In this document: positions 12,480 to 34,908 of the stretch, piece by piece
How positions within the stretch are numbered: position 1 is the stretch's first letter
Layout of the letters: each line of letters starts with the position of its first letter
Sequence record: PV730300.1
Strand: one strand, 5' to 3'
Length of the DNA: 64,000 bases
From: a phage
Notes under the pieces: generated by a model
Databases searched by the model: none
Told to the model about the DNA's origin: nothing
The model's input: the letters and a program-made list of their open reading frames with translations, nothing else
Position numbers and translations under genes: made by a program

Positions 12480-13490
12480 ATGGCAGAAAGAGAGTATACA
12501 AAAGCTCCTGCCCCTAATTTAAACAGGGCATACAAATTATTAATTGGTTCTGCCACAAACACAATACAGAAGAGAACTAAGAACTCGGCATTTAAATCTA
12601 CAGTAGATTTGGATACCAAGTTAGGGACAACAGAAAAATCCTCTTCTAATTTGTATTTGTTGCAAGACCATCAAATAACCTTCAGTATTAAGAAAGATAA
12701 TAACAAAGATCCTAACCAAGCAGAGATTGTAGTTTATAACCTTTCGGATGATACTGTTAACTATATAAACCGTGGTATCCGAAATAACTTGGCTGTTGCT
12801 TTAGCGGTAGGATACGAAGGTGAAGAGTTGGTTATGATCTTCAAAGGAACTATCCAGTGGGTTAGTGATACTTTTGACTCGGTAGACAGGAAAACCACTT
12901 TACACTGTTTAGATGGCGGTATTAACATTGCAGAAGCAAGAACAAGCCGCAGTTATCCAAAAGGAACTAAAATAAAACGTGTTGTGACAGATTTAGTAAA
13001 GGATTTAGGAACTACAGAAGGTAATATACACGTAGATAATGATCAAACCTTATCCTCAGCAACAGCTATGTGTGGAAACACTTCACATTACCTAGAACAT
13101 ATTTGTAAAAGTATTGATCACAATGTGTCAATACAAGATGGATCTGTTTATGTCACTCCTCGTTCACAAATGTCTAGTGCACGTAGCGCCTATATTAGCC
13201 CTGAAACTGGTCTGATAGGAAGTCCAGAACCATTCCACAACGATATAAAACCTACTAAAAAAGTTACCAAGTCCTCTAAGAAGGCAAAGAAACCTACAGA
13301 TGGTGTTAAATTCAAATGCCAAATGAATGGTGCAATATTACCAGAAAAAACAATCTGGTTAAAAAGCCGAGATTATGATGGTCCATTTAAAGTTGTTTCT
13401 GTTTCTCACAATGGTGATAAAGAGGGTAAAGAGTGGGTTACTGAAGTGGAGTGTGTATCCGTGTCTGAAATAATGACTAAGGAGAAATAA
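12480..13490 (+). CDS. Baseplate hub-like protein
   Basis: 336 aa ORF directly upstream of the spike gene; position-based call. Confidence 0.4.
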   Translation: MAEREYTKAPAPNLNRAYKLLIGSATNTIQKRTKNSAFKSTVDLDTKLGTTEKSSSNLYLLQDHQITFSIKKDNNKDPNQAEIVVYNLSDDTVNYINRGIRNNLAVALAVGYEGEELVMIFKGTIQWVSDTFDSVDRKTTLHCLDGGINIAEARTSRSYPKGTKIKRVVTDLVKDLGTTEGNIHVDNDQTLSSATAMCGNTSHYLEHICKSIDHNVSIQDGSVYVTPRSQMSSARSAYISPETGLIGSPEPFHNDIKPTKKVTKSSKKAKKPTDGVKFKCQMNGAILPEKTIWLKSRDYDGPFKVVSVSHNGDKEGKEWVTEVECVSVSEIMTKEK

Positions 13491-14852: not shown

Positions 14853-15325
14853 TGGCAGATTTAACTACGATCAAAATTTCTGATCTTACACAAACAACCT
14901 CTGTGTCTGATACAGATTTCTTTGTAACAGATCAGGCTGGAATAACAAAGAAAACTTCTTTGAAAGTGCTGTTGAGTGGTGCAGGGGTAACTAGAAACCG
15001 TCTGAATGCACGGGGAACAGTAACTAGCACCTTGGTATTAGATATTAGTTCGGCAGAATATTTTTCAGCAACTTTATCTTCTGCAACGTGCACAATTAGT
15101 TTTACTAATATTCCAGTAGCAACAAATGCAGTTTTAAACTTTACTTTAGCTTTGCGTCAAGGAAGTGGTGCAAATAAAGTCGTATGGCCTTCTTCTGTAA
15201 AATGGAGTTTTGGTCGTTCCCCAGTTTTGAGTTATCGTCAAGGTGCAACAGACACTTTTGAGTTTATCAGTTATGATAATGGAGCAACTTGGACAGGTAG
15301 CTTAGTTTTAGCAGGAGTTATTTAA
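14852..15325 (+). CDS. Baseplate / tail structural protein
   Basis: 157 aa ORF with overlapping stop-start to both neighbours. Confidence 0.4.
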   Translation: MADLTTIKISDLTQTTSVSDTDFFVTDQAGITKKTSLKVLLSGAGVTRNRLNARGTVTSTLVLDISSAEYFSATLSSATCTISFTNIPVATNAVLNFTLALRQGSGANKVVWPSSVKWSFGRSPVLSYRQGATDTFEFISYDNGATWTGSLVLAGVI

Positions 15326-18201: not shown

Positions 18202-18209
18202 GGGGTAAA

Positions 18210-20363
18210 ATGAAACAAGCTATATTTACTGTCACGCGAGACAAGAGAGTAAATGCGAGTTCATTTAACTACACGACTGTTGACGGAACAGCAGTCGCTG
18301 GTAGAGATTATATTGCAAAATCGGGAACACTTGTGTTCCCTGATGATGCTGATTCTGCTACTATTGTGGTTGAAGTATTTGAACGACCAAAGAACTCAAT
18401 AGATCTTAACTTCTCCCTCCAAGTTTCAGGGATTAGTCAAAATAACATGATGGTTGAAACAACCATCAATTGTATTATAACTACTATCCAAGAAAATACT
18501 ACTCCAATAACTTGGACTACAAAAGACGTTAAAATGTTCTCTCCTATGTATTGGACAATAGATTCTCAAGCAACGGAAAGTTGTTCTATTGTATCTCATG
18601 GAGACTCTTTTACTGCAAGATTTGTAAACAGAACAACAGCAGGTTTGGCAGGGGTTATCTGGAGCACAGTTGACAAATATGACCATAAAGGTGTTGGGTA
18701 TTTACCCCACACAGATTTAAGTTCAGAGAAACTTTGGTTTAAAATGGAAATTAGTCAAAACATGCCAGGTTTTAAAGAAGAACCTTTGGTGCCGACTTTG
18801 ACTGTAACCCTCCTGGATAAAAGTGTTCATTATGTCAGTTTAGGATTCTATGCTTCAGATATTTCAGAAGATGGTAAAACAGCCACAATCAAGCTAGATT
18901 TTGGTAATATCTTTTCTGGCCCTAATAATGATATTCCTTTGGATATGAGTGCCGTAGACAATATTTTCTTCTCTTTGATTACAGCAAGGTATGAAAAAAT
19001 AGAGGAGATTGTACCTATTGACAGTCAAGAGGCTTGGTTTACTTTCACTCTTCTTGAACCTACTTCTGGTTATAGTATGATGAAAGTCAGCAACCTTGTC
19101 CAGCCTGAACATGATATTCGCATGTGCACATCTTATGATGATATGTATAACCTGACTCCAGAGAGAGTTATTTATAATACATATGCACTAGGTTATCGTG
19201 GAATGATTAACCATTACAACGGAATGTCTCACTATTATGAGTTCTCATGGAACGGAACATCTTGGGCTTTAAATAGATCTGTTTTCCTGAATCCGGCTAC
19301 AGAAGCTTGGCTTAACAGTTTCCATTCTATAGCTAATGAAAATGGCTACACAATAATGAACTCTTTGAGTTTTGAGTTGATGAGCACAGTTTGTCCTGTT
19401 GAATGGGTCCAGCATGATTGGAACGATGCTCTTGCAGCAACAGGGTATAAGCCTCCTAGTTACGTGTTGTCTCCAACTATTGACGAAGGCATGGAATATT
19501 TGCAAAATGTTATTAACAAAATAGCATCTATTTCTCAAGCTAATAACATTCCAGTCGTCATTCAAATTGGTGAACCTTGGTGGTGGTATAATACAGCAAG
19601 TAAAATGCCTTGCATATACGATTACACTACCAAACTGGCATTCAACACAGAAACTGGCTTATTTGCACAAGATGCAGGAACAATAGATAATTATAAAACA
19701 GGAACGCCGTTTGACGAATACTATGCGTTTTTGTCTCGTAAACTAGGATTAAGAGTTACAAAGTTTGCAACAGACACTAGAGCAACTTATCCAGGAGCTA
19801 AAGTAACATTGCTGCCATTCTTACCATCAATTATCGGCAATGGTTTAATGGAGAAAGTTAACTTTCCGTCTGATTACTACATTCCTGAAGCTTTTGATTT
19901 TTATTGTTCAGAGTGTTACGACTGGCTTCTGGAAGGTAAAATGATGAAAGCATTTGATGCAATTACCATACCACATGAAAAATTAGGTTTTGAATATTCT
20001 GATATTCACTATCTTGCAGGTTTTGTTCCAGATGCTACTCTTGCCCCTTTGTATGGCTTTGATCCTGAATCAAACTACCGCACGTATCTTTGGAAAATGA
20101 TTATAGGTAACATAGTGTTGAACGCCAATAAGTTTGACGGACTTACACAATATATATGGGCCTATCCTCAAATAATGCACGATTCTATCACGGTAGTTAA
20201 TTCTCAATCCCAAGTTTTCTATATGGGTAACGTGCCTTTGAACGCTTATTTACAGGATATCACTCTTAAGCAGGTAAATGTTGAGATTGCCACCCTAAGT
20301 GGAATTACATTAGCCACTAAATCTGGAGAAGATTTAGTAACAACACAAAAATTTTATATATAG
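18210..20363 (+). CDS. Large tail structural protein
   Basis: 717 aa ORF with SD in baseplate/fibre cluster. Confidence 0.45.
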   Translation: MKQAIFTVTRDKRVNASSFNYTTVDGTAVAGRDYIAKSGTLVFPDDADSATIVVEVFERPKNSIDLNFSLQVSGISQNNMMVETTINCIITTIQENTTPITWTTKDVKMFSPMYWTIDSQATESCSIVSHGDSFTARFVNRTTAGLAGVIWSTVDKYDHKGVGYLPHTDLSSEKLWFKMEISQNMPGFKEEPLVPTLTVTLLDKSVHYVSLGFYASDISEDGKTATIKLDFGNIFSGPNNDIPLDMSAVDNIFFSLITARYEKIEEIVPIDSQEAWFTFTLLEPTSGYSMMKVSNLVQPEHDIRMCTSYDDMYNLTPERVIYNTYALGYRGMINHYNGMSHYYEFSWNGTSWALNRSVFLNPATEAWLNSFHSIANENGYTIMNSLSFELMSTVCPVEWVQHDWNDALAATGYKPPSYVLSPTIDEGMEYLQNVINKIASISQANNIPVVIQIGEPWWWYNTASKMPCIYDYTTKLAFNTETGLFAQDAGTIDNYKTGTPFDEYYAFLSRKLGLRVTKFATDTRATYPGAKVTLLPFLPSIIGNGLMEKVNFPSDYYIPEAFDFYCSECYDWLLEGKMMKAFDAITIPHEKLGFEYSDIHYLAGFVPDATLAPLYGFDPESNYRTYLWKMIIGNIVLNANKFDGLTQYIWAYPQIMHDSITVVNSQSQVFYMGNVPLNAYLQDITLKQVNVEIATLSGITLATKSGEDLVTTQKFYI

Positions 20364-20371
20364 GAGTAAAA

Positions 20372-22012
20372 ATGTCAACTACAATTACTAATTTACCTGA
20401 AACATCAAAAGTTAATGGTTCTGATTACCTGGTTTTAGACCAACCTGATAAGACTGTTAAAAGCACAGTTTCCAACTTTCTTACTGACACTGGGGTGGTT
20501 TTAGCCACCCAGTTGAAAGATACAGATGGAGCAGGTTTAGTTAACACATCTAGCGGAGATTCAGTCCAAACCGTTATTGATTATCTGATAGATACTGACC
20601 TGGCTCATCTTAGTAATCTGGCTACTGCCAAAGCGTCTACCATTAAAGCCAACAACATTAATATTGCTTATAAATATGGTAATGTTTCTTATCTCTCTAC
20701 CGGCACTACTGGTACGCCTTCAACTGGTAACGCACATACTTTTTATGATGCAACTGGTAAGGGGTTTAAGATAAATGCACCGCAACGGCAGAAAAACACT
20801 TCTGGTGTAATAGCATTCTCGGAAGTATGGACTAAGTTAGATTTAGACCCTACTCTATTCGAAAAAGCAATATCGCTAGGAATTGGTACATTCATGTTCT
20901 ATACCTGGACAGCGCCAGTACAGACATATAAAGATTTCCTCGACCTTGCGAGTATTTACGGATTTGATGTTATTTTACAGGCAGTACCAAATAGTACGTA
21001 TTCATCCGACCTGGACGCGGATTTCGCTAAACTGTCTCCTTTATTCGACCATGACGCTGTAGTAGGGTTATACCTATTCGACGAGCCGAACTTGTCTACA
21101 TACCCTCTTACCCGCCAGGGTGAGATTATTGCTAAAGCGAAAACACTTAGTAACCTACCGCTGTACGCCGCTAGTAATGCAGAAGTTAACGGGGAATCTC
21201 TACCACTCCATATGGATATTGATTACGTATTTACATCCCAGTACGCGCATTTCATAGGTGCAGTTGGTATCCGTCGATACGCTGCCTCTATGTGGTCGGC
21301 TATGGAGGAGGAGGGGATGAGGGCAGGACGTATCATCCCGTTACTAACAGCGTATTGGTATGAGAACGAGGCCCCAACTTTAAAATCCGCACAGATTACA
21401 GCGGTTAATAACTTCATCTGTAAAAACTTTTCTAAGATTGGCATGTGGGCTTTCTATGCTAATAAAAATGGGCACTTTCTGGAAAACGATGACCAGATAT
21501 ATAATCTCGTGAAACAAAGTCTTGCCATCCGCAAGAGTAAAATAAAAGACTGTAAGTTGATACGTACACTATTCCGAAAGGCTAACGCCCTGCCCGCTAA
21601 CTGCTATAAATACCAGACAAAACCAACTGTCGTAGGGGATGTGTTCTGGCTAGATCCTGCATCAACCGCTACATGGAACGACCCCGCAGGAGTTATTCGA
21701 ATTAAGACAGGGGAGCAATTCGCCATAAACTTTGGGCGACCAGTACGTCTGGAGGCGATTATAGCAGCTTTCACCGACAACAACGGTTCAAGTAACAGCG
21801 CCACCCTGTCCCTCACTTTCAACCCAACTATCGCATCTGGTAGGGTGTATGATACTACTGTCACAAAAGTAGGCGGCGGCGATTTTGAGTGGTTTTTTAC
21901 GGATTTATCGAACCCACCACATTTAGTTACTACAGTGGCTATAAAGGTTGTATCGTCTACTGGCTCTGACTATCTGATATTGGAGCGTATTGGTTTTGTA
22001 GTAACTGAGTAA
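20372..22012 (+). CDS. Tail fibre / tailspike-like protein
   Basis: 546 aa; N-terminus (TNLPETSKVNGSDYLVLDQ) resembles fibre/spike attachment domains; followed by strong terminator. Confidence 0.45.
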   Translation: MSTTITNLPETSKVNGSDYLVLDQPDKTVKSTVSNFLTDTGVVLATQLKDTDGAGLVNTSSGDSVQTVIDYLIDTDLAHLSNLATAKASTIKANNINIAYKYGNVSYLSTGTTGTPSTGNAHTFYDATGKGFKINAPQRQKNTSGVIAFSEVWTKLDLDPTLFEKAISLGIGTFMFYTWTAPVQTYKDFLDLASIYGFDVILQAVPNSTYSSDLDADFAKLSPLFDHDAVVGLYLFDEPNLSTYPLTRQGEIIAKAKTLSNLPLYAASNAEVNGESLPLHMDIDYVFTSQYAHFIGAVGIRRYAASMWSAMEEEGMRAGRIIPLLTAYWYENEAPTLKSAQITAVNNFICKNFSKIGMWAFYANKNGHFLENDDQIYNLVKQSLAIRKSKIKDCKLIRTLFRKANALPANCYKYQTKPTVVGDVFWLDPASTATWNDPAGVIRIKTGEQFAINFGRPVRLEAIIAAFTDNNGSSNSATLSLTFNPTIASGRVYDTTVTKVGGGDFEWFFTDLSNPPHLVTTVAIKVVSSTGSDYLILERIGFVVTE

Positions 22013-22220: not shown

Positions 22221-22459
22221 GAAAATTTTTAATAGGTATGTTCTGTACATATCCTGATAATAAAGTCAGTTCTACGAAAGTCTGGAACGCTGTAGGCATG
22301 TCGGTTATGACAGGCATGTTTATCTTTTTAGGAATAGAAAAAGAAATTCCTGAATGGATGGGTTGGGCTTTTGTTTTCATGATAACTCCTTCTCGCCTCA
22401 TGAAAAATCTTATTGATTTACGCTGGGGCAGATCACAATCTACCAAAGAGGATGACTAA
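22217..22459 (+). CDS. Small membrane protein with two predicted TM helices and charged C-terminus (holin-like topology)
   Basis: 80 aa; hydrophobic segments VWNAVGMSVMTGMFIFLGI and WMGWAFVFMITP; C-terminal RWGRSQSTKEDD. Confidence 0.4.
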   Translation: MRKFLIGMFCTYPDNKVSSTKVWNAVGMSVMTGMFIFLGIEKEIPEWMGWAFVFMITPSRLMKNLIDLRWGRSQSTKEDD

Positions 22460-23946
22460 TGGACGAATATGGTTTGACAGATGCGGGATTTGTAATCCCG
22501 ACTTTTGACGATGTTTTAAACAACTACATGACAGCAGTAAAAAACACATTTGGTGCAGATGCAGCCACTTCGGAAGATACTGTGATCGGACAACTGTTTA
22601 GAATAATTGCATACACAGATTACACATTGTGGGAAGGTATGCAAGGTGTTTATAATACTCAAACACTGGATGGTGCAGAAGGTATTTATCTTGATGAAAT
22701 CTTTTCTAAACGCGGTTTCTATCGAGCAGGTGCAGCAGCAAGTACAGGTTATGCATATGTTAAGAGTAATAACAAAGCAGCTTGGACTTATGAGCTAGGC
22801 ACGGATATTTACTTCAACTCTGATAGTGATATGAACTACTATGTTAGCACACCAACCATGTTGAATGCTAAGATTGCAGCTTATCAAATCTCTCGTGCTA
22901 ATGCAACTGCTACAGGTGTTCCAAATATTACTTTTTATGCACAAAGTGCGGTCGATGGAGGACTAAACAGCAAAACACTTGCACCTGGTTCTTCTACATT
23001 TATAACCGATCTTGAAACTTTTATCAAGGCAAATTTAACAGAAGCTGATCGTAGTCTTGTATTTTCTGATTCAGGTAACTTATCAATTGGTTTTACTTCT
23101 TTAACCAGTGATACTCCAGTGGGGCTGGTAACTCCTATTAAATTTTATGCTAGTGTTCCGGTTGGAACCAAGTGGAGTGAGATTCCGGTAGTTGCAGCAG
23201 AGAAAGGATACAATCCTGTTGGTGTGGAGTCTATTACAGGGATATCTTCTACCTTTACAGGTTATCTTGACAGTGGTAACTTCTATTCATTTTCTCCTGG
23301 TCGAGATGTTGAGACAGACGCAGAATTCCGCTCTCGTTTCAATGACAACGTTGATGAAGCTAACGCAGGGACACGAGCAGCTATTGTGAAAGCTCTGTTG
23401 CTTACAGATGGTGTTACTAAGGTGAAGATTTATGATAACCCTACGTTACATGATCAAGAACACGCTCCAGCTATGACTTTCCAGACTATAGTTTATGGTG
23501 GCAGTGCAGAAGAAATTGCAAATGTTATCTATAAAACCAAACCAATCAACACTTTGACACACGGAACAACTAACATAACAGTTACAACAGAAGATGGAGG
23601 ACAAGAAATTATTCGCTTCTCCCCTGGTGCTTCTGCTACGTATTCTGTAAAACTTGTTTATCAAACTGTCAACGGAACAACTTTAAGTGGAACAGAAAAA
23701 CAAAACATCGTAGAAGCTTTACAAAACCTGCAAGCTTACTTTGAGTTAGGTTCTTCAGTAACGAACGATCAAATCAAAGGTGTTATTTATGCAGCACTTG
23801 CTTTTGGACGCTTGACTTCTCTTCGTGTTTATGTTAAACTTAATACTGAGGATGACAGTAAATATACAGAGAATAATATAGTTCCTGCTTATAATGTTGT
23901 CCCTTCTTTTGACCTTGATAACATTTCTTACGAGTATGGAGTGTAA
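22459..23946 (+). CDS. Baseplate J-like protein (gp6 / gpJ family)
   Basis: 495 aa; position between baseplate genes and tail fibre; Gly/Asp-rich N-terminal region suggested as Baseplate_J-like; not motif-confirmed. Confidence 0.5.
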   Translation: MDEYGLTDAGFVIPTFDDVLNNYMTAVKNTFGADAATSEDTVIGQLFRIIAYTDYTLWEGMQGVYNTQTLDGAEGIYLDEIFSKRGFYRAGAAASTGYAYVKSNNKAAWTYELGTDIYFNSDSDMNYYVSTPTMLNAKIAAYQISRANATATGVPNITFYAQSAVDGGLNSKTLAPGSSTFITDLETFIKANLTEADRSLVFSDSGNLSIGFTSLTSDTPVGLVTPIKFYASVPVGTKWSEIPVVAAEKGYNPVGVESITGISSTFTGYLDSGNFYSFSPGRDVETDAEFRSRFNDNVDEANAGTRAAIVKALLLTDGVTKVKIYDNPTLHDQEHAPAMTFQTIVYGGSAEEIANVIYKTKPINTLTHGTTNITVTTEDGGQEIIRFSPGASATYSVKLVYQTVNGTTLSGTEKQNIVEALQNLQAYFELGSSVTNDQIKGVIYAALAFGRLTSLRVYVKLNTEDDSKYTENNIVPAYNVVPSFDLDNISYEYGV

Positions 23947-23948
23947 AA

Positions 23949-24578
23949 ATGGCAGTGAGTGTTGACCATGTAACAACTTGGGCCAGTATCAACGAAGATG
24001 TTAAAAACCTTCTGATTGAAGATTTTAAATCTTCTCCTAACATTGTCAAGCTCCTCTACATCGTATCCAGTGAAAAGCAAAAGATAGATCAGGCAATGAT
24101 CTATCTTGCTAAACACCGCTTGATCTCTACAGCCACAGGCAAATACCTAGATATTCTAGGGGAAGAAATGGGGATCGAACGTAATGGCTCTGATGATGAA
24201 GAGTATAGAACAATATTAAAAATCAGGGCTTACCGCGTAGCCTCATCGGGGACTCGTGGTGACATAATTGATATCTTCGCCCGTTTCACAGGAACAGAGC
24301 GTGAAACGCTTAATACTTACGTAGGTTTGAATAAAACCTTTGATGTGTTTTTCTACAACCTGTGTCTTCAATCTGATCAAGCTTTAGAGCAGTTGCTAAG
24401 TGTTTTCCCTATTATTAGTAGCTACCGTCTTGGAGCAAAAGCAGGATCAGCTTTTGGTTTTAGTTCTTATTATGCTACCAAACCGCCTCATGGTATTGGT
24501 GGTTTAGGTTCCCTGTACATGGAATCTACTGGGGATGAAACAGGACGCATGTGTACGCTTCTCAAGCAAATAGATTAA
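23949..24578 (+). CDS. Baseplate protein (gpI-like)
   Basis: 209 aa ORF immediately downstream of J-like gene, as in P2/Mu-type baseplate operons. Confidence 0.4.
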   Translation: MAVSVDHVTTWASINEDVKNLLIEDFKSSPNIVKLLYIVSSEKQKIDQAMIYLAKHRLISTATGKYLDILGEEMGIERNGSDDEEYRTILKIRAYRVASSGTRGDIIDIFARFTGTERETLNTYVGLNKTFDVFFYNLCLQSDQALEQLLSVFPIISSYRLGAKAGSAFGFSSYYATKPPHGIGGLGSLYMESTGDETGRMCTLLKQID

Positions 24579-24587
24579 GGAGTTTAA

Positions 24588-25649
24588 ATGGCGAAGCCAA
24601 TATATTATCCTGACTGGGCTACACAAACTGTAACGCTCCCAGGAACTTTAAACACAAACAAAATTAGACCTAAAGAAACCATCCGCACAGTTGGTATGGA
24701 TTATGGTCAAATCATGACTTGCGAAGAAATGAACTGGATTCTTAATAATATCGGTTTATGGATTCGCTATTTGGTGGATGACTTTCTTCCAACTTTACCT
24801 AATACCTACTTGCCTTTAGTGGGAACTAAGATTACAATGGCAGGTGATGCTACTGGTGAGGCTACTTGGAACGGTAACAAAGAAGTTACTTTATCTATCC
24901 AAGTTCAAGATAACAGTCATAATCACTTGTCGGCAAACATTACAGATGCCACTAGTTCAACAGTAACACCAAACGTGTTGGTAAAACGTGATGCGGGTGG
25001 TGCTATTTATGGTGGCGATGTTTATGTTAACGGTACTTCCACAACAGATCCTGCAACACTGTTCTTCAAAAACTTCGCAGGACAAACAAATGGTGAGATT
25101 TCTGCCGAGTATCAAAGCGGAGGTCAGCTTTACATCTATCGTAGAAATCCTAGCACAGGTAATGTATCGGCAGGTGTTCGTTTATATGATGCAGGTTATG
25201 TTCTAATAGACAGTCCAAGATCAAACAGTGGGCAAGATACTTCTAACGGAAACGCTTTAGTTCGCTTAGATTATCTGAATTCTCGTTTGACTTCTCTTCA
25301 GAACACATTGCAGACGAATATTAACACTGTTCAAAACAACCTGAATAGTGTTAACAACAACCTCTCTTCTCGTATAAACAATGTAGAAAGTAATCATCAA
25401 AGTCAGATTACAAATAACTACAACTATGCTAACGGAACCTTTGTAAGAGATATTCGTTATACTAGCCAAGGTGTGTATTATCCCCCAGGGAACGAGGTTT
25501 CTTGGACTTATATCTGTTCTTCTGGTTATGTTCTTTCTGGTATTATCGTACAGGAAACAGGACGTAGCTCTGCGGATAACATCGGTGGGGTTTACTTCAA
25601 ACGCCTCCAGCGCAACGTTAACGGAAACTGGTACGATATTGGAGGCTAA
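24588..25649 (+). CDS. Tail fibre protein
   Basis: 353 aa; Asn/Ser/Thr/Gly-rich with heptad-like NNLNSVNNNLSSRINNVESN segment; followed by putative assembly chaperone. Confidence 0.45.
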   Translation: MAKPIYYPDWATQTVTLPGTLNTNKIRPKETIRTVGMDYGQIMTCEEMNWILNNIGLWIRYLVDDFLPTLPNTYLPLVGTKITMAGDATGEATWNGNKEVTLSIQVQDNSHNHLSANITDATSSTVTPNVLVKRDAGGAIYGGDVYVNGTSTTDPATLFFKNFAGQTNGEISAEYQSGGQLYIYRRNPSTGNVSAGVRLYDAGYVLIDSPRSNSGQDTSNGNALVRLDYLNSRLTSLQNTLQTNINTVQNNLNSVNNNLSSRINNVESNHQSQITNNYNYANGTFVRDIRYTSQGVYYPPGNEVSWTYICSSGYVLSGIIVQETGRSSADNIGGVYFKRLQRNVNGNWYDIGG

Positions 25650-26195
25650 ATGATATTTACAAACTTTAAAAAATATATTCCTGAAGACCCTGAACTAAAA
25701 GAATTGGTAGAAGCAGAGAACATTCTTTTTCTTCGTTGCGATCAAGGTTACGATTGGTATGATTTACGTAGCACAGAGTTCAATAACGATAAAATGAAAG
25801 TCGTTTTTGATGATCAAAATCGTATTGTGTTTTGGAATACTGATCCTACACTACTTTGCCCTGAAGATCTTTCTATAGCACAAGTAGACTTTAATATAGA
25901 TACTTTTGAGGATATTAGGAACAAGGTTCTGGATTTAGAAACCTTAACTCTTAAGGATAAAGAGTATTCCCGTGAAGAGTTGATGACACAAGCTAGTGCA
26001 AAAATTCGCTCTTTACAAGAAACAGCGGTAGCACTTATAACACCTTTACAGTATGCTAAAGATTTAGAAATGGCTACTGAAGACGAATTAGCTTATCTTA
26101 AAAATCTTCAAGTTTATGTAGTTAAACTAAATCGTGTTCCGCTTCAAAAAGACTATCCTTACGCTATAGATTGGCCTACATTACCGACAGAATAA
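25650..26195 (+). CDS. Tail fibre assembly protein / chaperone
   Basis: 181 aa acidic ORF translationally coupled to the preceding fibre gene. Confidence 0.4.
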   Translation: MIFTNFKKYIPEDPELKELVEAENILFLRCDQGYDWYDLRSTEFNNDKMKVVFDDQNRIVFWNTDPTLLCPEDLSIAQVDFNIDTFEDIRNKVLDLETLTLKDKEYSREELMTQASAKIRSLQETAVALITPLQYAKDLEMATEDELAYLKNLQVYVVKLNRVPLQKDYPYAIDWPTLPTE

Positions 26196-26543: not shown

Positions 26544-29500
26544 ATGGCAACATTCCCAACATATCCAGCAACGTCTCTCGAACAGGGCGTAGACCTGGTT
26601 ATTTTCTCATCTAACCAACTCCATGATGTTATTAATGGAAGTGCTACAGAGAGTATTGAAACAGAATCAGGGTTGATACCAACCCTGAGAAAAGCCCTTG
26701 TTGACAACTTTTTCTTTAAAAGCCCATTGGATTGGGCGCAAGGCACAAACGAAACAGTTTTTAACCAACTTCGTTATTTCCAGAATGGAGTATTGAGCGG
26801 TTATTACTATGCCCCTAACGCTACATTGGTTAACCCAATCCCTATGCAAGGGACTCCAGTAGGAGATAACAACTGGGTATTGTGGGGACTGAAAACAGAA
26901 CAACTAGCAACAGAAGTCACCCCGTGGGTATACTCTGGTGCAACGGGTTATGAAACAGTAATTAGTCCTCCTTACATCTTTGATAGTGCTATTGTTACGA
27001 TCAATGGTGTTATTCAGGTTCTGGGGGAAGCTTTCCGTATAGAAGATAGTAAGATCATCTTATCTGAACCTTTGGGACACGATCCTGCAACAGGACTGCC
27101 AAACAAGCTTTTTGCTTATATTGGTAAAATCGTAGCTTCAGCAGATACAGATCCTAACCTAGAGAATCGTCTTGTTAGTTTAGAAACAAAAACGGAAGAA
27201 CTAACAGAAAGCATGGATAAAGTCCCTCTGCAAACTATTGCTCGTAAATATGGTTTGTTAGATGATGAGGTGGCTTACGCAACAGCAGGTCAATCGTTAA
27301 CAGGGATTAAAGCTCTGTATGATCCAGTAGCACAGTCTTCCTACACATTACCTCCTAACATCACAGGAACTTTAACATCCTTATCTGTTTCTGGAGTAAT
27401 GACTTATTCTGGTGGGTCTGTAGATCTTTCTGCACTAGCTGTTGAACGTGGACAGTTTGTTCATTTGCCTACAAGCTTTGGTAATAACGTAACTCTGACA
27501 GCTAAAAATCAGACGATTGGACGTGGTGCTGGTCGTTATCGTTGGGCTGGAAGTTTACCAAAAAGTATTTTGGCCTCCGATACATTGGAGACAAGCGGTG
27601 GATTAGGTCCAAATGCATGGGTTCTGACCAATACAGAAGGACTGTTAACCCCTCGTGGTGGAACATACAACGACTTATTCGATGTTGTCTACTTGTCAGA
27701 ATTTGCTAACAACACAACAGCATATACCACACCAGAAGCAGCTTTCCAAGCAGCACTGTTAGCAGCAAAAGCTTCTAAAAGCAAGATTCTCGATGCTTAC
27801 GGTTGTGATATGACTTTCACGACAAGCTCTTTTGATATTCAAGGTATCACTTTGCGTGGGGGTGTGTTCCGTGGTCAACGCGACTATCGTGTGCAAAATG
27901 CTACAGTAGAAGGCACAACTTTCCGTAACTCTCGTGTTATGTATTGGGGTGGTGCTGTGCGCATGTTCGATTGTTTGTGGGACGGTGCTCCTCGCGCAGG
28001 TCAAGTTGGTAGCTTGGTATTCCAAGGCAACCCAATATCAGGTACTTTTGAAATTGATAACTGTACTTTTAAAAACGGGTTGTATGGCATCCTTCAACAA
28101 GGAACAGGGGAACCAGTAACACGTGGTGTCTTCCGTAACCTTACCTTCATGGACATGCAAGGTGATGCAATAGAACTGAACGTCATCAATAAACATTATG
28201 ACGATGGTTGTGTGATTGAGAATATTTACCTGTCTAATATCGATGGGACTAACGCTCCTATTCCTCTGTCCAACTGGGGTATCGGTATCGGTGTAGCTGG
28301 TAAAGGACCATATGGTTACGGAATCCCTGATGATCAATATTGCAAGAATATTACAATTCGTAACGTTTTTGCAAAACGTTGTCGTCAGATTGTCCACGTA
28401 GAAGTTGGTCGTAATATCTCTATCGAAAACATTCATGGCGATCCAGACCAGACCGTATCTGTTGGGACAGGTTTGGCAACTGGCGCAGTTGTAATGTATG
28501 GAAGTAAAGATTTTACGATTGACGGTGTTTACGGAGAGCCTAAAACAGACGGTAGCACACTTGCAAGTAATATCCGTATGATTTATTTGGAGTGGGGAAC
28601 TAACGCAGTTCTGGATGAAGAGGGTAATCCGGTAGTTCCGGCACAGGGCAGACCTTCAAATCCATGCTTTAACTATTCTGTTCGTAACATTCACACCAAA
28701 ACTGGGCGTGTTTTTGCGGGAGTTTCCGCTGGACCAGGTTATGAAAACAGAGTTAGCTTTGAAAATATTCGTTGCGCTGCATTGCAGTTGTTCGGTATAG
28801 CTTCTTGGCTTTCAATGTCTAACATCACCTGTAATATCTTCGATTGTGTTGGTCAACCTGAATCTGGTCCAGGGACATTTTATGATGGATTCTTCCGTAG
28901 AGAAAAATCTGTTCTTGAAATGGTTAACGTAAACTGTTACCCAGATGGCAAGACGATGGTTACTGGTCGTCCACAGTGGAGCCGTTGCCGTTACTCTGAT
29001 ATTCATCGTGTCAACTGTAATGTTGAAGCTAATATGTATACCAATATCGCAGGTGGTATTGGAGCTATTGTAGGGACAACGGGCAAAGTTTATTACTTAG
29101 AGCCTAATCCTAGTCGAAACATTGATGGAATGCATTTCCCAACAGGGAAAGAGTTTGACAAAGGTGATATGATAGTCAAGGCGGATAATACGTTCTTCCT
29201 TGTAACAACAAGTGGGGCATATATTCCAGATATCCCAGCTTTCGGTATTCGAGCTACACAGGCAGGAGATACCTTCCTAACACAGAACTTGACTCCTAAC
29301 GGGACAGCAACAAATGCTTCTTGGTTGTATCATTACCCTCTGTCAGCAGGGACACGTATCCGTATTCCTGGTGCTGGCGTAGGTGGAGCAGATTTGGACA
29401 CAGTTATTACTCGTGCACCTTATCAAGATAATGATACGTGGACTAACCCAGTTAAAATAGACATTGCAGATCCAATTGTAACGCCTACAAGTGCTGGAGT

Positions 29501-29597
29501 TAGAATTAAAACCATACCTAATGATTCCAGCAATGTTTCTGTAGGTAATACTGCGGTTATTCGCCCAACGCCAGTAGTAGATGTGCCAACAACCTAA
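26544..29597 (+). CDS. Tailspike protein with right-handed beta-helix (pectate-lyase-like) repeats
   Basis: 1017 aa; repeated N-x-T-I-x-N-h segments (NITIRNVFAKRC, NISIENIHGDP, VRNIHTKTGRVFAGVSAG) suggestive of a parallel beta-helix. Confidence 0.5.
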   Translation: MATFPTYPATSLEQGVDLVIFSSNQLHDVINGSATESIETESGLIPTLRKALVDNFFFKSPLDWAQGTNETVFNQLRYFQNGVLSGYYYAPNATLVNPIPMQGTPVGDNNWVLWGLKTEQLATEVTPWVYSGATGYETVISPPYIFDSAIVTINGVIQVLGEAFRIEDSKIILSEPLGHDPATGLPNKLFAYIGKIVASADTDPNLENRLVSLETKTEELTESMDKVPLQTIARKYGLLDDEVAYATAGQSLTGIKALYDPVAQSSYTLPPNITGTLTSLSVSGVMTYSGGSVDLSALAVERGQFVHLPTSFGNNVTLTAKNQTIGRGAGRYRWAGSLPKSILASDTLETSGGLGPNAWVLTNTEGLLTPRGGTYNDLFDVVYLSEFANNTTAYTTPEAAFQAALLAAKASKSKILDAYGCDMTFTTSSFDIQGITLRGGVFRGQRDYRVQNATVEGTTFRNSRVMYWGGAVRMFDCLWDGAPRAGQVGSLVFQGNPISGTFEIDNCTFKNGLYGILQQGTGEPVTRGVFRNLTFMDMQGDAIELNVINKHYDDGCVIENIYLSNIDGTNAPIPLSNWGIGIGVAGKGPYGYGIPDDQYCKNITIRNVFAKRCRQIVHVEVGRNISIENIHGDPDQTVSVGTGLATGAVVMYGSKDFTIDGVYGEPKTDGSTLASNIRMIYLEWGTNAVLDEEGNPVVPAQGRPSNPCFNYSVRNIHTKTGRVFAGVSAGPGYENRVSFENIRCAALQLFGIASWLSMSNITCNIFDCVGQPESGPGTFYDGFFRREKSVLEMVNVNCYPDGKTMVTGRPQWSRCRYSDIHRVNCNVEANMYTNIAGGIGAIVGTTGKVYYLEPNPSRNIDGMHFPTGKEFDKGDMIVKADNTFFLVTTSGAYIPDIPAFGIRATQAGDTFLTQNLTPNGTATNASWLYHYPLSAGTRIRIPGAGVGGADLDTVITRAPYQDNDTWTNPVKIDIADPIVTPTSAGVRIKTIPNDSSNVSVGNTAVIRPTPVVDVPTT

Positions 29598-29603
29598 TGG
29601 AAC

Positions 29604-29630
29604 AGAGGGGGATTCCCCCTCTTCTTCCAA
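29604..29630 (+). terminator. Terminator-like hairpin after tailspike gene
   Basis: 8-bp stem agaggggg/ccccctct with 3-nt loop, followed by tcttcc. Confidence 0.45.
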
Positions 29631-29658
29631 TAGAATGGTCTAATGATAGGAGAGATAA

Positions 29659-31683
29659 ATGAATTTAACAAGACCTAATAGTGCGATAGCCGATCTGGTA
29701 GAAGCTACTTATCGAAAACGTCGCAGCTTTGAGGCAGGTTTTACATTACGTAATTCCCGTGAAGTTTTGCTGTTAGCAGCAGAAGGGAATTATTACCAAT
29801 GGAAAGGAACTTTTCCTAAAGTAGTTCCAGCAAACTCTACGCCAGCCACCACAGGTGGTATTTCTTCCCTTGCATGGCAAAGTGTTGGGACCGCTGATGA
29901 TATAGCAATTATCAATGCCAAGTTTACGGCAATGCAGCAACAGATTGATGATCTGTCGGAAACAATACCTGAAGCTGGTAAATCGGCTTATCAGATCGCA
30001 CTTGATAATGGTTTTGTTGGAACAGAAGCACAATGGCTTGCTTCTTTGAAAGGGGATACTGGTGCTCAACTTAATATTAAAGGATCATTAGCAAGCACTA
30101 GTGAGCTACCATCTACAGGTAACGTTGCAGGGGACGGTTATATCGTAGGCGATGTAATCTATGCTTGGGATGGTTCTGTTTGGAAGCTTATTTCTTCTCT
30201 TGGACCAGAAGGGAAATCAGCTTATGAGGTATGGTTGGCAGATGGTAATACAGGATCTGTTTATGATTTTCTTACCTCTATAAAAGGTGATAAAGGTGAT
30301 GTTGGTCCTACAGGGCCACAGGGAGCACCTGGTGTTAACGCCAACGGTTTTGATTATCGTGGAGATTTGCCTTCTACAAGTAACTTACCACAACCTAACT
30401 CTGAAAACGTAAGCCAAGCTTATTCTATCAATGGTAATCTTTATGTCTCTAATGGGACAGCTTGGGTCAACATGGGTAATATTGTTGGTCCTCAAGGTCC
30501 ACAAGGTGAGGCAGGTAAAGACGGTCTTGATGGAACAGATGGAGATGAAGGGAAATCTGCATATCAAAGTTGGCTGGATGCTGGTAATGAAGGGACAGAA
30601 GTAGATTTTATTGCCTCACTTAAAGGTCCAAAAGGAGACAAGGGTGATCAAGGAGAGCGAGGTCCACAAGGTGAACTAGGTCCACAAGGACCAGTGGGTG
30701 CAACAGGATCAGGCTTAGAGATTATCGGGGTTCTGAACAGTGAAGCTGAACTTCCTCCTACTGGAGAAGTAGGTGATGCATATAAAATTAATAATGATTT
30801 GTATGTTTGGATTCAAGATGCTACGGAATGGATGAATGTTGGCAGTCTTGGAGGAACATCAATTACAGCTAAAGGTCATGTTCCGAACAGTGAAGCTCTC
30901 CCTGTTTATAATAACTATGGTGATGCCTATTTAACTGAAGACACTAGTAATCTTTACATCTATACCTACGATCAAGACACCAATTCCGCATCTTTTGTTG
31001 ACATGGGAAGTATTAAAGGCGACAAAGGTGAAAAAGGGGATAAAGGAGATAAGGGTGATCCTGGAACAAACGGAACCAACGGTACTAATGGGACCAACGG
31101 TAAAGACGGCGCACAGTGGTTTGTAGCAACAACTAATCCAGTCGCAGGTGATGGTGTTATCAATGATTACGCTTTCAACACTACCACTGGAGCAGTGTTT
31201 AAGAAAACAGATTCTTCTACGTGGACACTTATAGGAACTCTTCCTAGTATACCAGAAGCACCTCAAGACGGCTTGACGTATGGTCGTTCTGATGGGAACT
31301 GGATCGAAATATCAGGATCAGATCCTACAGAAGCTATAACACCAACTAAAGTTACAGCAGGTTTCATGGAACTTGAAACAACTACTGCCAACTCTGGAGC
31401 ATCTTGGACTCCTTCTGGAACTTCCAATATGTATGTTGTTACAGTAACTGACGCTCTGACAGTTGGAGCATGGCCTGGTGTCACTGGCTCTACAAAGCCT
31501 AAAGCGTTTTCAGCAATGATTTATTTGATTCAAGATACAACGGGACACACGGTTACACTAGATGCGTCTTATGGAGCACTGAATGATACAGAAATAGCAA
31601 CTACTGCTAACGCAGTAACAATTTTGCAATTAACGTATCCTGGTGTGGGTAATGTCGTGGACATGGTTGTTGTAACACGATAA
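29659..31683 (+). CDS. Tail fibre protein with collagen-like Gly-X-Y repeats
   Basis: 674 aa; GDKGDVGPTGPQGAPG, GPQGPQGEAGKDGLDGTDGDEG, GPKGDKGDQGERGPQGELGPQGPVGATG, GDKGEKGDKGDKGDPGTNGTNGTNGTNGKDG; three copies of KSAYQxxLxxGxxGTxxxFxxSLKG module. Confidence 0.55.
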   Translation: MNLTRPNSAIADLVEATYRKRRSFEAGFTLRNSREVLLLAAEGNYYQWKGTFPKVVPANSTPATTGGISSLAWQSVGTADDIAIINAKFTAMQQQIDDLSETIPEAGKSAYQIALDNGFVGTEAQWLASLKGDTGAQLNIKGSLASTSELPSTGNVAGDGYIVGDVIYAWDGSVWKLISSLGPEGKSAYEVWLADGNTGSVYDFLTSIKGDKGDVGPTGPQGAPGVNANGFDYRGDLPSTSNLPQPNSENVSQAYSINGNLYVSNGTAWVNMGNIVGPQGPQGEAGKDGLDGTDGDEGKSAYQSWLDAGNEGTEVDFIASLKGPKGDKGDQGERGPQGELGPQGPVGATGSGLEIIGVLNSEAELPPTGEVGDAYKINNDLYVWIQDATEWMNVGSLGGTSITAKGHVPNSEALPVYNNYGDAYLTEDTSNLYIYTYDQDTNSASFVDMGSIKGDKGEKGDKGDKGDPGTNGTNGTNGTNGKDGAQWFVATTNPVAGDGVINDYAFNTTTGAVFKKTDSSTWTLIGTLPSIPEAPQDGLTYGRSDGNWIEISGSDPTEAITPTKVTAGFMELETTTANSGASWTPSGTSNMYVVTVTDALTVGAWPGVTGSTKPKAFSAMIYLIQDTTGHTVTLDASYGALNDTEIATTANAVTILQLTYPGVGNVVDMVVVTR

Positions 31684-31687
31684 CAGA

Positions 31688-31713
31688 AGCCCCGAAAGGG
31701 GCTTTCTTTTTAT
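31688..31713 (+). terminator. Rho-independent terminator
   Basis: agcccc-gaaa-ggggct hairpin followed by ttctttttat. Confidence 0.7.
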
Positions 31714-31724
31714 GGAGGGTTTAA

Positions 31725-33485
31725 ATGTTTCCAATTCCAATATTTACTATTATGACTAGCACTGGTGTCGTTCCTCTGCCAGCAGGTATTGTTAAAAAAG
31801 TGATTACTTTAGATTACCCAGATAACGCTGGTAATTCTAACAACAGTTTAGCAATTTTGCTTAATGATGGTAGATTGTTTACTCAAGGCGCAAACCTCTT
31901 TGGTGAGATTGCAGATGGAACTCGTAGTGCACGATTCAATAATTTCCACTTAGCTTCTACTGTAGTAGCGGACGTGTTTACCGCAGATCGTTGTTTTGTT
32001 ATTAAAACTAACAGTGGTGGATGGCAATATTCAGGATTGACAGCAGGGTTGGTAGGATCTATAGCAGCAGGTGGTACGGATGCATGTGTAACTACTTGGA
32101 CCAGCTTTCCATCTGTAATAACAGGGACTATTTCTTTAGCCAATCTTAAAGAGGTTAAAGGAGGGTATAACAATACTCTCTGGTTAATGAATAGTGGTGT
32201 TCTTTATGGATCGGGTCAAAACACAGTAGGTAGTTTAGGTGCAAGCACTACTAACGAAGTTTCTACTCCTCGTCAGATAACAAGCGCAGCAGTTGCTTTT
32301 GATGCAGGTTACAACCAATGCTCTTATGTCAACAATGTGGGAACCTTGCGTGTTTGTGGAGCTAGTAAAGGTTTAGCAGGTAATAATAACACAACAACAG
32401 CTTTTGTCAATGCCAAGATATCCACTACTGAAACAGTGTATGTCAAAGATTACATCAATACAGTTTCCCAGACAATAGTTGTAGGAGATACCTCCGGTGG
32501 CACGGGTACAGTAAACTACTTATATGTTAGATCTAATACAGAAACAACCTACACTAAACTGGACACCTTTGCAGCAGGTTTTTCAACATGGAAATTTCCA
32601 CCAAGCCGCCACTCTTTTTTCGTTGGGATCAATAATTCCTTGTGGGCTATTGGTAAGAACTATACGGCAAACTTAGGTTTGGGATATGATTCTGCGAGCG
32701 GAGATCCACTCCAAGTGGGAAAACCAGTTAAACCTGAAGGAGTGGGTTCCTGGGATATAAACAAGCTCACAAGCGTTCATACGCTGAATATGGATATTAC
32801 TAACCAATTAGGTTATCAAGGAACCTTTTTCGTTTATAACGGGAATATGTATTATTCCGGTATTTGGAAAGATGGGAAAGCCTCGTATCTGTTCAATAGT
32901 GGTCTAAACTATAATAAATTCACACCAATAGCAAGCTCTGTGATTACAGGGGATGTGCTGGCGACTAGCTTAACTACAGATTCTTTAGGAATTTGTATTG
33001 TAGGTGGAACTAAACAGTTGACACATTCTGTTAGCCCAGAAGGAGGTAAACTTTTCAATATTAAATACACTTCTTCTGCCCCTGCAAACATGACAATATC
33101 ATCTACTGGTTTAATGACTTTCCATGCAGAAGGTGGTTTTGATGCAGGTATGACAGCCTTAAACGCTGAAGGAACAATTTTATCAGATACCTCTGGAGGA
33201 TATGCTTCAACATTGAGTGTTTACACCCCTAGCTTATCTGCGATGGATGTAGGAACAACACAAACAATGGTAGCAGAAATAACGCCAACAGGGGCAGCAA
33301 GCTTACCTGGTATGGTTGTTGAGTATACCACTACAGATCCTAGTGTTGCTACAGTAGATCCTACAACTGGTGTAATAACTGGTGTTGGTGACGGTGGTTG
33401 TAGGATTGGTTGCACAGCTACGTATCAAGGTGTTGTTACCGCTTCTGATAGTTCTTATTTAACGGTGAATGCTGTTGCGGGATAA
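31725..33485 (+). CDS. Tail fibre / adhesin-like protein with C-terminal Ig-like (Big_2-type) domain
   Basis: 586 aa, Gly/Thr/Ser/Asn-rich; C-terminal TQTMVAEITPTGAASLPGMVVEYTTTDPSVATVDPTTGVITGVGDGG suggestive of a bacterial Ig-like domain. Confidence 0.45.
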   Translation: MFPIPIFTIMTSTGVVPLPAGIVKKVITLDYPDNAGNSNNSLAILLNDGRLFTQGANLFGEIADGTRSARFNNFHLASTVVADVFTADRCFVIKTNSGGWQYSGLTAGLVGSIAAGGTDACVTTWTSFPSVITGTISLANLKEVKGGYNNTLWLMNSGVLYGSGQNTVGSLGASTTNEVSTPRQITSAAVAFDAGYNQCSYVNNVGTLRVCGASKGLAGNNNTTTAFVNAKISTTETVYVKDYINTVSQTIVVGDTSGGTGTVNYLYVRSNTETTYTKLDTFAAGFSTWKFPPSRHSFFVGINNSLWAIGKNYTANLGLGYDSASGDPLQVGKPVKPEGVGSWDINKLTSVHTLNMDITNQLGYQGTFFVYNGNMYYSGIWKDGKASYLFNSGLNYNKFTPIASSVITGDVLATSLTTDSLGICIVGGTKQLTHSVSPEGGKLFNIKYTSSAPANMTISSTGLMTFHAEGGFDAGMTALNAEGTILSDTSGGYASTLSVYTPSLSAMDVGTTQTMVAEITPTGAASLPGMVVEYTTTDPSVATVDPTTGVITGVGDGGCRIGCTATYQGVVTASDSSYLTVNAVAG

Positions 33486-33490
33486 GAAAA

Positions 33491-33518
33491 GGAGCCAAAT
33501 GGCTCCTTTCTTTTATTC
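33491..33518. terminator. Bidirectional intrinsic terminator between convergent plus and minus transcription units
   Basis: 7-bp stem aggagcc/ggctcct with aaat loop flanked by A-rich upstream and T-rich downstream tracts. Confidence 0.65.
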
Positions 33519-34007
33519 AGCGTTCAACCCTTCCCCATGTTCTTGATGCCAAGCTTCATGGTGCAGAGGACACAGCCATAGAACATCTAACGGTTTATCA
33601 TAATCACAATGATGAGCATGAACATCAACAGACCCACACACTTGGCAAGGTTGTTTTATTAACTTTCCATCTCGGAGTGCGTTACCTACAGCTATATGAG
33701 CAGAACGTTTTTTCGGATTCTTTTCGATGTAACGTTTCTTAGCTTCATTAGCCTTATCTTTACCTTTCCCTTTTGCGTAAGCCTCTTTTAAAGCTTTGCG
33801 CTCTGGGGTCTGATCTCTGTTTTTATCATACTCTTTGTAATATTCAGATTTATCTTTACGATTCTGTTTAACATCTTTCTTATTACATTCTTTGCATTTA
33901 TTGACGTGACCGTCAGCCATAGCTTTATGTTTGTAAAATTCAGTGAGGGGCTTTAACACCCCACACTTGAAACAAACCTTAGAAGCAATGCAGGAAGTTT
34001 CGACCAT
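33513..34007 (-). CDS. HNH homing endonuclease
   Basis: C-terminal CQVCGSVDVHAHHCDYDKPLDVLWLCPLHHEAWH (HNH with Cys pairs); likely ATG at 34007 (listed ORF start 34205 overlaps the upstream gene). Confidence 0.7.
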   Translation of the reverse strand: MVETSCIASKVCFKCGVLKPLTEFYKHKAMADGHVNKCKECNKKDVKQNRKDKSEYYKEYDKNRDQTPERKALKEAYAKGKGKDKANEAKKRYIEKNPKKRSAHIAVGNALRDGKLIKQPCQVCGSVDVHAHHCDYDKPLDVLWLCPLHHEAWHQEHGEGLNAE

Positions 34008-34908
34008 ATTGCAGTCCAATAGGGGCAAAAGGAATATCTTCATCGAAGTCCATTGGAGGTTCTTCTTGATTACTTGGAGTTGGTTCTGGTTGTGGTTCAG
34101 GTTTCTTAACTTCTTTCTTCTCTTCTTTCTTAGGTTGTTCTGCGGAACCACGGATGGCAGCAGCAACTTTATCAGACAGAGCCAGAACTTTACGAGCAGA
34201 GTCAATCAGATCTTCTACAGATACAGTCTTAATGGTATGGTCTTTACAAGCATTGAGGATAGCGTGACCAACAGATGCCCCAAGATCATAATCATTAATA
34301 TCAACGCCACGAGATTCAGCAATTTCCGATTTCAGTGTGACAGTTGCAGATTGAACAACCCCAGCGATATCGAAAGCATCGCCTTTAACACCATTACGAA
34401 TCAGTTCCAGTGCACCATTTACTGCGTGACCAGTTTCCAGACCTACAGTATCACGTTTTTTATAGGATTGCTTAGGAGCATCGTTGGAACCTTTATTGCC
34501 AGAAGATTTGTTAGACTTCTGAACACCATCGGTAGACAATACTGTAATACGAGATTTTTTAGTATTGTAGTAAGTCTTACCGCCTTTATTATCAACGCGA
34601 TCAATATCAATACTTACTTCTACACCTTTTTCAATAGTGATCCAATTATCACCTTCTTTGACTTGCAGGTTTTCATAACCTTCTTTCAGTTCAATGTCAC
34701 CAAGAGAAATCCAAACACCTTTCTCATCTGGTTTAGCACCTTTCTCTTTCAGAACAAGAGAAGCTCGGTGAGTTGAAACAATCGTTTTTCCTTCCCAATG
34801 AAAAGTTTTAGGTTCAGCGAATTTATCCAGTTTAACGTAGTCTACGATACCAGTTGCATAAGTTACGGTTTTGCCTTTACGATCAGTTTCAGTATTAATT
34901 ACGGACAT
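33979..34908 (-). CDS. Single-stranded DNA-binding protein-like, with E. coli SSB-type acidic tail motif
   Basis: 309 aa; C-terminal PSNQEEPPMDFDEDIPF closely resembles E. coli SSB tail (PSNEPPMDFDDDIPF) but is followed by 15 further residues that overlap the HNH gene start. Confidence 0.5.
   Translation of the reverse strand: MSVINTETDRKGKTVTYATGIVDYVKLDKFAEPKTFHWEGKTIVSTHRASLVLKEKGAKPDEKGVWISLGDIELKEGYENLQVKEGDNWITIEKGVEVSIDIDRVDNKGGKTYYNTKKSRITVLSTDGVQKSNKSSGNKGSNDAPKQSYKKRDTVGLETGHAVNGALELIRNGVKGDAFDIAGVVQSATVTLKSEIAESRGVDINDYDLGASVGHAILNACKDHTIKTVSVEDLIDSARKVLALSDKVAAAIRGSAEQPKKEEKKEVKKPEPQPEPTPSNQEEPPMDFDEDIPFAPIGLQYGRNFLHCF

Follow-up and report, generated by a model that had tools for sequence, protein, structure and literature searches.

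How does a phage fibre hold together collagen-like runs of only a few triplets each, and which of its parts change from phage to phage? These questions are raised by a gene at 29659..31683 (+) of a 64,000-nucleotide (nt) stretch of phage DNA (sequence record PV730300.1), the whole of which we refer to as the window. An initial annotation, made from the sequence alone, had described the product as a tail fibre in which four Gly-X-Y runs alternate with three copies of a linker of roughly 30 amino acids (aa), and had proposed that such repeats serve as length-variable spacers and recombination hot spots. We found that, by sequence, the gene is a conserved tail fibre of a phAPEC8-like E. coli phage (Phapecoctavirus, a myovirus), and that its product is probably a homotrimer in which collagen rods are held by two kinds of node, termed here K and B, between an N-terminal anchor and an exchangeable tip.

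The open reading frame (ORF; 29659..31683 (+), 674 aa) starts with ATG and is preceded by an AGGAG Shine-Dalgarno motif at 29648-29652, 6 nt 5' of the start codon. It matches the PHROG 15437 'tail fiber protein' profile over its entire length (E = 0, 1335.5 bits, aa 1-674 against positions 1-655/656), and its DNA is 97-99% identical in phAPEC8, where it is called 'tail fiber protein', and in about 50 other Phapecoctavirus records. Gp151 of phage phi92 is 60% identical over the full length, and both genes are placed after a colanidase tailspike gene (gp150 in phi92). The name tail fibre, and with it a probable place on the tail of the virion, fits this profile, the Tail_spike_N domain described below, the baseplate/fibre cluster in which the gene lies and the orthology and synteny with phi92 gp151.

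The gene, its domains and repeats, the family grammar, the indel pattern and the mosaicism were computed directly. Secondary structure and model confidence (predicted local distance difference test, pLDDT) were taken from an AlphaFold2 (AF2) model of the monomer built from 24 sequences, with a mean pLDDT of 66. The resulting map runs in the order anchor, helix, K1, B1, K2, Col1, B2, Col2, K3, Col3, B3, B4, Col4, B5, foldon-like element and C-terminal domain:

29659..31683 (+): tail-fibre gene, 674 aa, ortholog of phi92 gp151 and Wecvirus 'TfpM2'
29692..29889 (+): N-terminal anchor, aa 12-77, Pfam Tail_spike_N (PF18668), 70.5 bits against a cut-off of 25
29899..29964 (+): single long helix, aa 81-102, from AF2 secondary structure
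29974..30054 (+): K1, 27 aa, helix-turn-helix, GKSAY...SLKG, starting at aa 107
30055..30210 (+): B1, about 50 aa, four beta strands, aa 133-184
30208..30288 (+): K2, starting at aa 185
30286..30333 (+): Col1, 5 Gly-X-Y triplets, aa 210-225, same length in all 15 aligned homologs
30334..30489 (+): B2, aa 226-277
30487..30552 (+): Col2, 7 triplets, aa 277-298, 4-10 in homologs
30547..30627 (+): K3, starting at aa 298, missing in several longer relatives, where Col2 and Col3 are fused
30625..30708 (+): Col3, 9 triplets, aa 323-350, 7-9 in homologs
30709..30852 (+): B3, aa 351-398
30853..31020 (+): B4, aa 399-454
31018..31110 (+): Col4, 10 triplets, aa 454-484, 2-12 in homologs
31111..31239 (+): B5, divergent four-strand beta module, aa 485-527, pLDDT 80-93
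31240..31317 (+): foldon-like element, aa 528-553, IPEAPQDGLTYGRSDGNWIEIS
31324..31680 (+): C-terminal beta-sandwich, Pfam PF26209 (Phage_phiTE_241_C), pLDDT 76-93
31686..31705 (+): terminator-like hairpin with a T-run, directly 3' of the fibre stop codon

All four Gly-X-Y runs lie within the coordinates given in the initial annotation, both strings that it quoted are exact, and each run is uninterrupted. Glycine recurs at every third position 11 times in the longest run; across 2,000 shuffled versions of the protein this count averaged 3.0 and never exceeded 7. The Pfam Collagen family (PF01391) is matched at 46.5 bits (gathering cut-off 27.2), a scan of NCBIfam gave only sub-threshold matches to collagen-like adhesins, and KG[DE] motifs occur 7 times in the 31 triplets.

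The three copies of the GKSAY module, K, were also confirmed as 27-aa units, with mutual similarities of z = 10-17 relative to shuffles (0/500 shuffles reaching the score) and hidden Markov model (HMM) E-values of 1e-16 to 1e-18. That they alternate with the collagen runs holds only loosely: the real order is mixed and includes the second module, B, which had gone unnoticed together with the Tail_spike_N anchor, the long helix, the foldon-like element and the C-terminal domain. B has the consensus LP..G..GDaY.v...lYvW.g..W..vG; its copies B1-B4 resemble one another at z = 5-13 relative to shuffles, and B5 resembles B1 only (z = 6.7) and falls under the B-HMM threshold. Each K is predicted by AF2 as a folded unit of two short helices (pLDDT ~70-79), at odds with its earlier description as a linker, and each B as four strands with a short helical turn (pLDDT 80-88). 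No Pfam family matches B, and none, DUF2934 (PF11154) included, matches the K copies of the window; across the wider family DUF2934 weakly matches 8/50 K instances (best E = 0.022), and one relative, P0028, passes at 35.7 bits. A search of the PDB with the B profile retrieved gp184, an inner capsid protein of phiKZ (E = 6e-6), as well as a DUF2793 protein (E = 0.25). The match to gp184, the one solved relative of B by sequence, suggests that B folds as an autonomous beta unit but points to no function. Searching the literature for the K motif as a sequence string yielded no report, and the RBPseg fibre atlas mentions neither collagen nor a foldon.

The foldon-like element shares 13/22 residues with the T4 fibritin foldon, including PEAP.DG..Y.R.DG.W, and is matched by isolated foldon peptides in the PDB (E ~0.01-0.03); AF2 places a hairpin within it at aa 540-551 (strands 540-544/547-551). 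Two relatives exceed the threshold of Pfam Fibritin_C (PF07921), P0016 at 36.6 bits and P0028 at 30.3 bits. At the N-terminal end, the anchor (pLDDT 82-90) finds CBA120 TSP1/3/4 and G7C gp63.1 in the PDB by sequence and by Foldseek as well, and the helix that follows, at aa 81-102, is probably a trimeric coiled-coil neck, judging from the model. The C-terminal domain was assigned to PF26209 through the precomputed Pfam annotation of the 99%-identical P0001 and of EP57, and matches residues 598-790 of PDB 9cuy_g, the C-terminus of the phiTE fibre chain, by sequence; this beta-sandwich is the presumed receptor-binding tip.

From this map we infer a trimer with triple-helical segments, a function for the nodes, an attachment partner and receptor binding, as follows. 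Tail_spike_N would dock the fibre on a branched tailspike/baseplate complex, as in CBA120 and G7C, possibly by way of the neighbouring colanidase tailspike, which bears the same domain behind a 300-aa adaptor. The shaft would then take the form of 'beads on rods', in which four short hydroxyproline-free collagen triple helices lie between K hairpins and B units and act as rigid spacers, their 97 residues spanning ~28 nm at 0.286 nm per residue. Because the runs are too short and too proline-poor for a self-standing triple helix and each has folded modules on both sides, K, B and the foldon-like hairpin may serve as nodes for trimerisation and registration, at which every rod is nucleated and clamped, with ion pairs in the KGD/KGE motifs stabilising the rods further. 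The C-terminal beta-sandwich would bind the receptor. Bacterial collagens depend on charge pairs of this kind (KGD/KGE) and on adjacent trimerisation domains. For phage collagen-like proteins, adjacent trimerisation domains have been shown (PMC3368898).

Several observations weigh against this model of noded collagen rods. The runs comprise only 5-10 triplets each, and proline occupies 26% of X and 6% of Y positions. The K profile retrieved only chance-level matches from the PDB (ankyrin repeats, HincII), with no solved K relative among them, and Fibritin_C reaches 13.8 bits in this fibre, below its cut-off of 21. Furthermore, a 2026 electron cryo-microscopy study of phi92 describes gp151 as a putative fibre that fits no density and whose function is uncharacterised, and its AlphaFold3 model of gp151 did not fit the unassigned fibre II density (PMC13450770); the phi92 record, in turn, labels the N-terminal domain of gp151 a 'potential capsid binding domain'.

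The brevity and low proline content of the runs would also be expected if they were flexible glycine-rich hinges that form no triple helix, with only the globular parts holding the fibre together. Their pLDDT of <50 in the AF2 monomer and the phi92 record, which calls the central domain a coiled-coil fold and not collagen, point the same way. However, a pLDDT below 50 is what one chain of a triple helix is expected to give in a monomer model. A hinge, moreover, has no need of the unbroken glycine periodicity that we found in all 15 homologs, nor of indels that are all multiples of three, and the hinge reading sits poorly with a Pfam Collagen score over cut-off and an enrichment in KGD/KGE. Related phage proteins have, in addition, been found by experiment to form triple helices (PMC3368898), and we consider hinges distinctly unlikely.

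A different objection concerns where the protein sits, since the phi92 label would suit a location on the head, with the protein a capsid fibre or decoration protein and not part of the tail. The fibre gene closes the baseplate/fibre gene cluster of the window, which comprises:

12480-13490: hub
15325-22012: large tail proteins
22459-24578: wedge
24588-26195: short fibre and chaperone
26544-29597: colanidase-type tailspike, 1,017 aa, PHROG 6117, upstream neighbour of the fibre
31725-33485: RCC1/Big_2 tail protein, 586 aa, downstream neighbour of the fibre

Its place between the colanidase tailspike and a tail protein, at the end of this cluster and well away from the window's head genes, argues against a head fibre, as do the N-terminal domain, which is the tailspike-to-tail anchor of CBA120 and G7C, and the C-terminal domain, which is common to the phiTE long tail fibre (PMC11972413). 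We therefore judge a location on the head unlikely and retain the tail fibre with collagen rods and K/B nodes.

The neighbouring genes have features of their own. The colanidase tailspike carries an internal Tail_spike_N at aa 302-361, preceded by a 300-aa N-terminal extension matching tail-fibre PHROGs; this architecture is that of adaptor-bearing tailspikes in branched systems, and at 1,017 aa the protein is far longer than phi92 gp150 (804 aa). Between its stop codon and the fibre gene, at 29604-29622, lies a GC-rich hairpin (AGAGGGGG-ATT-CCCCCTCT) that was not scored as a terminator by the scan because it lacks a T-run. Downstream, the tail protein of 586 aa has RCC1-like beta-propeller repeats followed at its C-terminus by Big_2 immunoglobulin-like domains, and phi92 has a shorter, different gene (gp152) at this position. 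Just past the structural module, at a strand switch, lies a putative HNH/endonuclease VII-type gene (33513-34205 (-)); its TTG-started ORF overlaps the next gene (33979-34908), and its real start is therefore probably further downstream. A profile search found no other K, B, foldon-like or collagen modules elsewhere in the 64-kb window.

We then asked how the shaft varies. In an alignment of 15 homologs across genera, the collagen runs account for 16% of all columns but hold 51 of the 75 that contain gaps, and every collagen indel was a multiple of three residues, such that the glycine periodicity is not broken in any run of any homolog. Longer relatives also lack or gain whole modules; K3 or B4, for example, may be absent. 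Phi92 gp151, for its part, has fewer triplets than the window fibre in Col2, Col3 and Col4. The proposal that the runs are length-variable spacers thus describes the differences between genera well but not those within the genus, where about 55 of 60 records, from many hosts and countries, are exactly 2,025 nt long. Two small in-frame exceptions both fall in Col4, the only site of such variants within the genus. Its coding sequence consists of a pair of imperfect tandem arrays of 9-nt units (31014-31059 and 31063-31100, 75-78% matches), inside which one GTN triplet (9 nt) is missing in ASO2A and two GDK triplets (18 nt) in iGC_PHA_EC001. Gain and loss of whole triplets within the collagen-coding 9-nt repeats is one of two evolutionary processes visible in the gene.

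Two further length variants are of a different nature. In SKA64 (L003), at the equivalent of ~30052, precisely the unit coding for K1 is duplicated in tandem (76 nt), which shifts the frame; the record annotates only a truncated 549-aa product, and the duplication either inactivates the gene in reality or reflects an assembly error. An in-frame deletion of 486 nt in EP57 (L004), equivalent to 30612-31097, removes Col3, B3, B4 and most of Col4. We rejected this deletion as proof that the shaft tolerates such losses and considered it unreliable, given a junction without homology, a genome of only 130.7 kb and the shortening of both neighbours as well (tailspike 482 aa, RCC1 protein 542 aa).

The clustering of both natural in-frame variants in the Col4 arrays could alternatively mark a contingency locus, in which frequent slippage alters the length of the fibre and hence its host range; differences between genera of up to 10 triplets in Col2 and Col4 would agree with this, as would the collagen-repeat deletions that have been tied to host shifts in a virophage (PMC7242381). 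We regard this as very unlikely, however, because the length is so nearly constant within the genus, the imperfect DNA repeats disfavour slippage, and one triplet changes the length by <1 nm. Moreover, the Phapecoctavirus isolates AV125 and AV126, which have unlike host ranges, both carry 2,025-nt alleles, and their difference has been attributed to another receptor-binding protein (PMC10844046).

The shaft also contains one clear intragenic swap of modules:

30601..30876 (+): mosaic cassette, 276 nt, gene nt 943-1218, comprising the end of K3, Col3, B3 and the start of B4

When compared with phage anhysbys in sliding windows, this cassette has 62% nt identity as against 97.7% in the remaining gene, with equal lengths (Fisher p = 1e-64). 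The alternative Col3-B3 cassette occurs in 16 records representing 11 phages (anhysbys and 10 others), and no donor was found in the phage collection outside the fibre gene family. Its left edge lies at the K3/Col3 junction, and its right edge coincides with the second copy of an 18-nt direct repeat (94% identical; 30730-30747 and 30880-30897) that encodes the starts of B3 and B4.

A second point of exchange lies nearer the C-terminus. Relatives that have the N-terminal ~540 residues in common carry unrelated C-termini, and the same tip is found on Vequintavirus and Mydovirus fibres without a K/B/collagen shaft, with similarity beginning at aa 541-570; together, these patterns point to an exchange of the tip just past the foldon-like element and not inside a collagen run. 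That collagen-like repeats are recombination hot spots is an old idea in the field (PMC7242381, PMC5601072). In this fibre the swapped Col3-B3 cassette, with its left edge at K3/Col3, agrees with the idea, but the tip is exchanged after the foldon and exchange is modular. The second visible evolutionary process is homologous exchange of entire modules at module borders, including replacement of the tip.

All 10 records that list E. coli K-12 MG1655 as host (five phages, all isolated in a single study of wastewater in Denmark) have the alternative cassette, and no K-12 record carries the Col3-B3 allele of the window. This association, confounded by common origin and a single isolation host, is the sole hint of a link between shaft allele and host. 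Host labels in the group include near-identical Phapecoctavirus genomes recorded as phages of Campylobacter (B15), Acinetobacter (ABPW7) and Klebsiella (ZCKP1), as well as a 74%-identical relative recorded as a Pseudomonas phage (PsgM04F); in a group that otherwise infects E. coli, some of these labels look doubtful.

The same parts recur well beyond the genus. Across 121 sequences (the window protein and its 120 best matches), K modules number 570 and B modules 669; collagen runs exceed 1,000, with a median length of 6 triplets, and foldon-like units occur in tandem. The succession of modules follows a clear grammar. The element after a K module is a collagen run in 63% of cases and that after a B module in 79%, while 82% of collagen runs lead into B or K. 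Foldon-like units stand in tandem, in 2-6 copies, at the ends of longer relatives (P0016, P0020-P0027 and others), which indicates that in this family the unit acts as a repeat and not solely as a C-terminal cap as in T4 fibritin. In 1.84 billion proteins, the B profile alone (E <= 1e-3) matched 8,934 cluster representatives, and a single protein may contain as many as 16 copies. Judged by these profiles, the window fibre is a short member of a very large modular "Lego" fibre family, whose building plan is common but largely undescribed and is not a new kind of system. A bolder extension, which we consider rather unlikely, is that K and B are general, portable nodes for short proline-poor rods, a collagen 'Lego' in which B might be an analogue of the multiplexin trimerisation domain; on this view the swapped Col3-B3 cassette would alter adsorption, and the shaft as well as the tip would contribute to host range.

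The preferred model, a trimeric tail fibre of noded collagen rods, can be set beside several known systems. The closest are phi92 gp151 (Justusliebigvirus) and Wecvirus 'TfpM2', which have the same K-B-K-c-B-c-K-c-B-B-c-F order (c, collagen; F, foldon) at the same locus after the colanidase gene (PMC12695924); the descriptions of them that we examined do not describe collagen runs, K or B, and the phi92 record says 'coiled-coil'. Pectobacterium phage CB7 encodes a protein, CB7_10, with the same shaft grammar and a B5-plus-foldon unit, which differs in its 1,099 aa, nine collagen runs, different C-terminus and location in the head module. The protein (L005 1505-4804) was detected in the virion by mass spectrometry, and its gene adjoins that of the major head protein; from this location, it is a possibility that some members of the K/B/collagen family are head fibres. 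The long tail fibre gp241 of Pectobacterium phage phiTE is the namesake of the C-terminal family PF26209, and only N-terminal residues of the phiTE long tail fibre have been modelled (PMC11972413).

Few receptor-binding proteins have been characterised in Phapecoctaviruses, which have a broad host range and are candidates for phage therapy; the exact module borders, indel sites and exchange points described here can guide fibre engineering, with tip swaps after the foldon and replaceable shaft modules. The K/B/collagen/foldon grammar is, in addition, a natural source of short, hydroxyproline-free, self-registering collagen segments for protein design.

Other systems resemble the fibre in single parts. 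CBA120 TSP1-4 and G7C gp63.1/gp66 share the N-terminal anchor PF18668, but run on into beta-helix enzymes, whereas the window fibre runs on into a modular collagen-based shaft and a small tip. Like the T4 fibritin foldon and engineered collagen-foldon fusions (PDB 1NAY, 9GFR), the window fibre has a beta-hairpin of ~27 residues, a putative trimerisation motif, downstream of a collagen-like region; in contrast to T4 fibritin, the foldon-like element is not C-terminal, is separated from Col4 by B5 and matches Fibritin_C below threshold. In the antireceptors of Streptococcus thermophilus phages, too, the domains of a host-recognition protein are set apart by collagen-like repeats, which flank VR2 and for which a role as recombination hot spots has been suggested (Duplessis and Moineau 2001, cited in PMC5601072 and PMC7242381); the antireceptor sequences are unrelated, and in the window fibre the tip is bounded by the foldon-like element and the one clear intragenic swap lies in the shaft.

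The EPclA-D proteins of enterohaemorrhagic E. coli prophages are trimeric; trimerisation domains flank their collagen domains, which are free of hydroxyproline (Ghosh et al. 2012, PMC3368898), and in these side-tail fibres collagen length varies in multiples of three (PMC3368898). Their collagen domains are long (27-322 aa), one or two per protein, and are accompanied by PfN, PCoil, Pf2 and PfC, as opposed to four short runs set among K and B. Because PfN (PF08400), PfC (PF06820) and Pf2 (PF03406) were not found in the window fibre at E <= 0.1, its sequence places it outside the EPcl family, yet it would work like the EPcl proteins. Collagen-like phage fibres, their triplet-wise length variation (PMC3368898) and the suggestion of hot spots (PMC7242381, PMC5601072) are already known; next to these systems the present case is ordinary in kind, adds useful detail of modest extent, and leaves the current view of phage fibre function unchanged.

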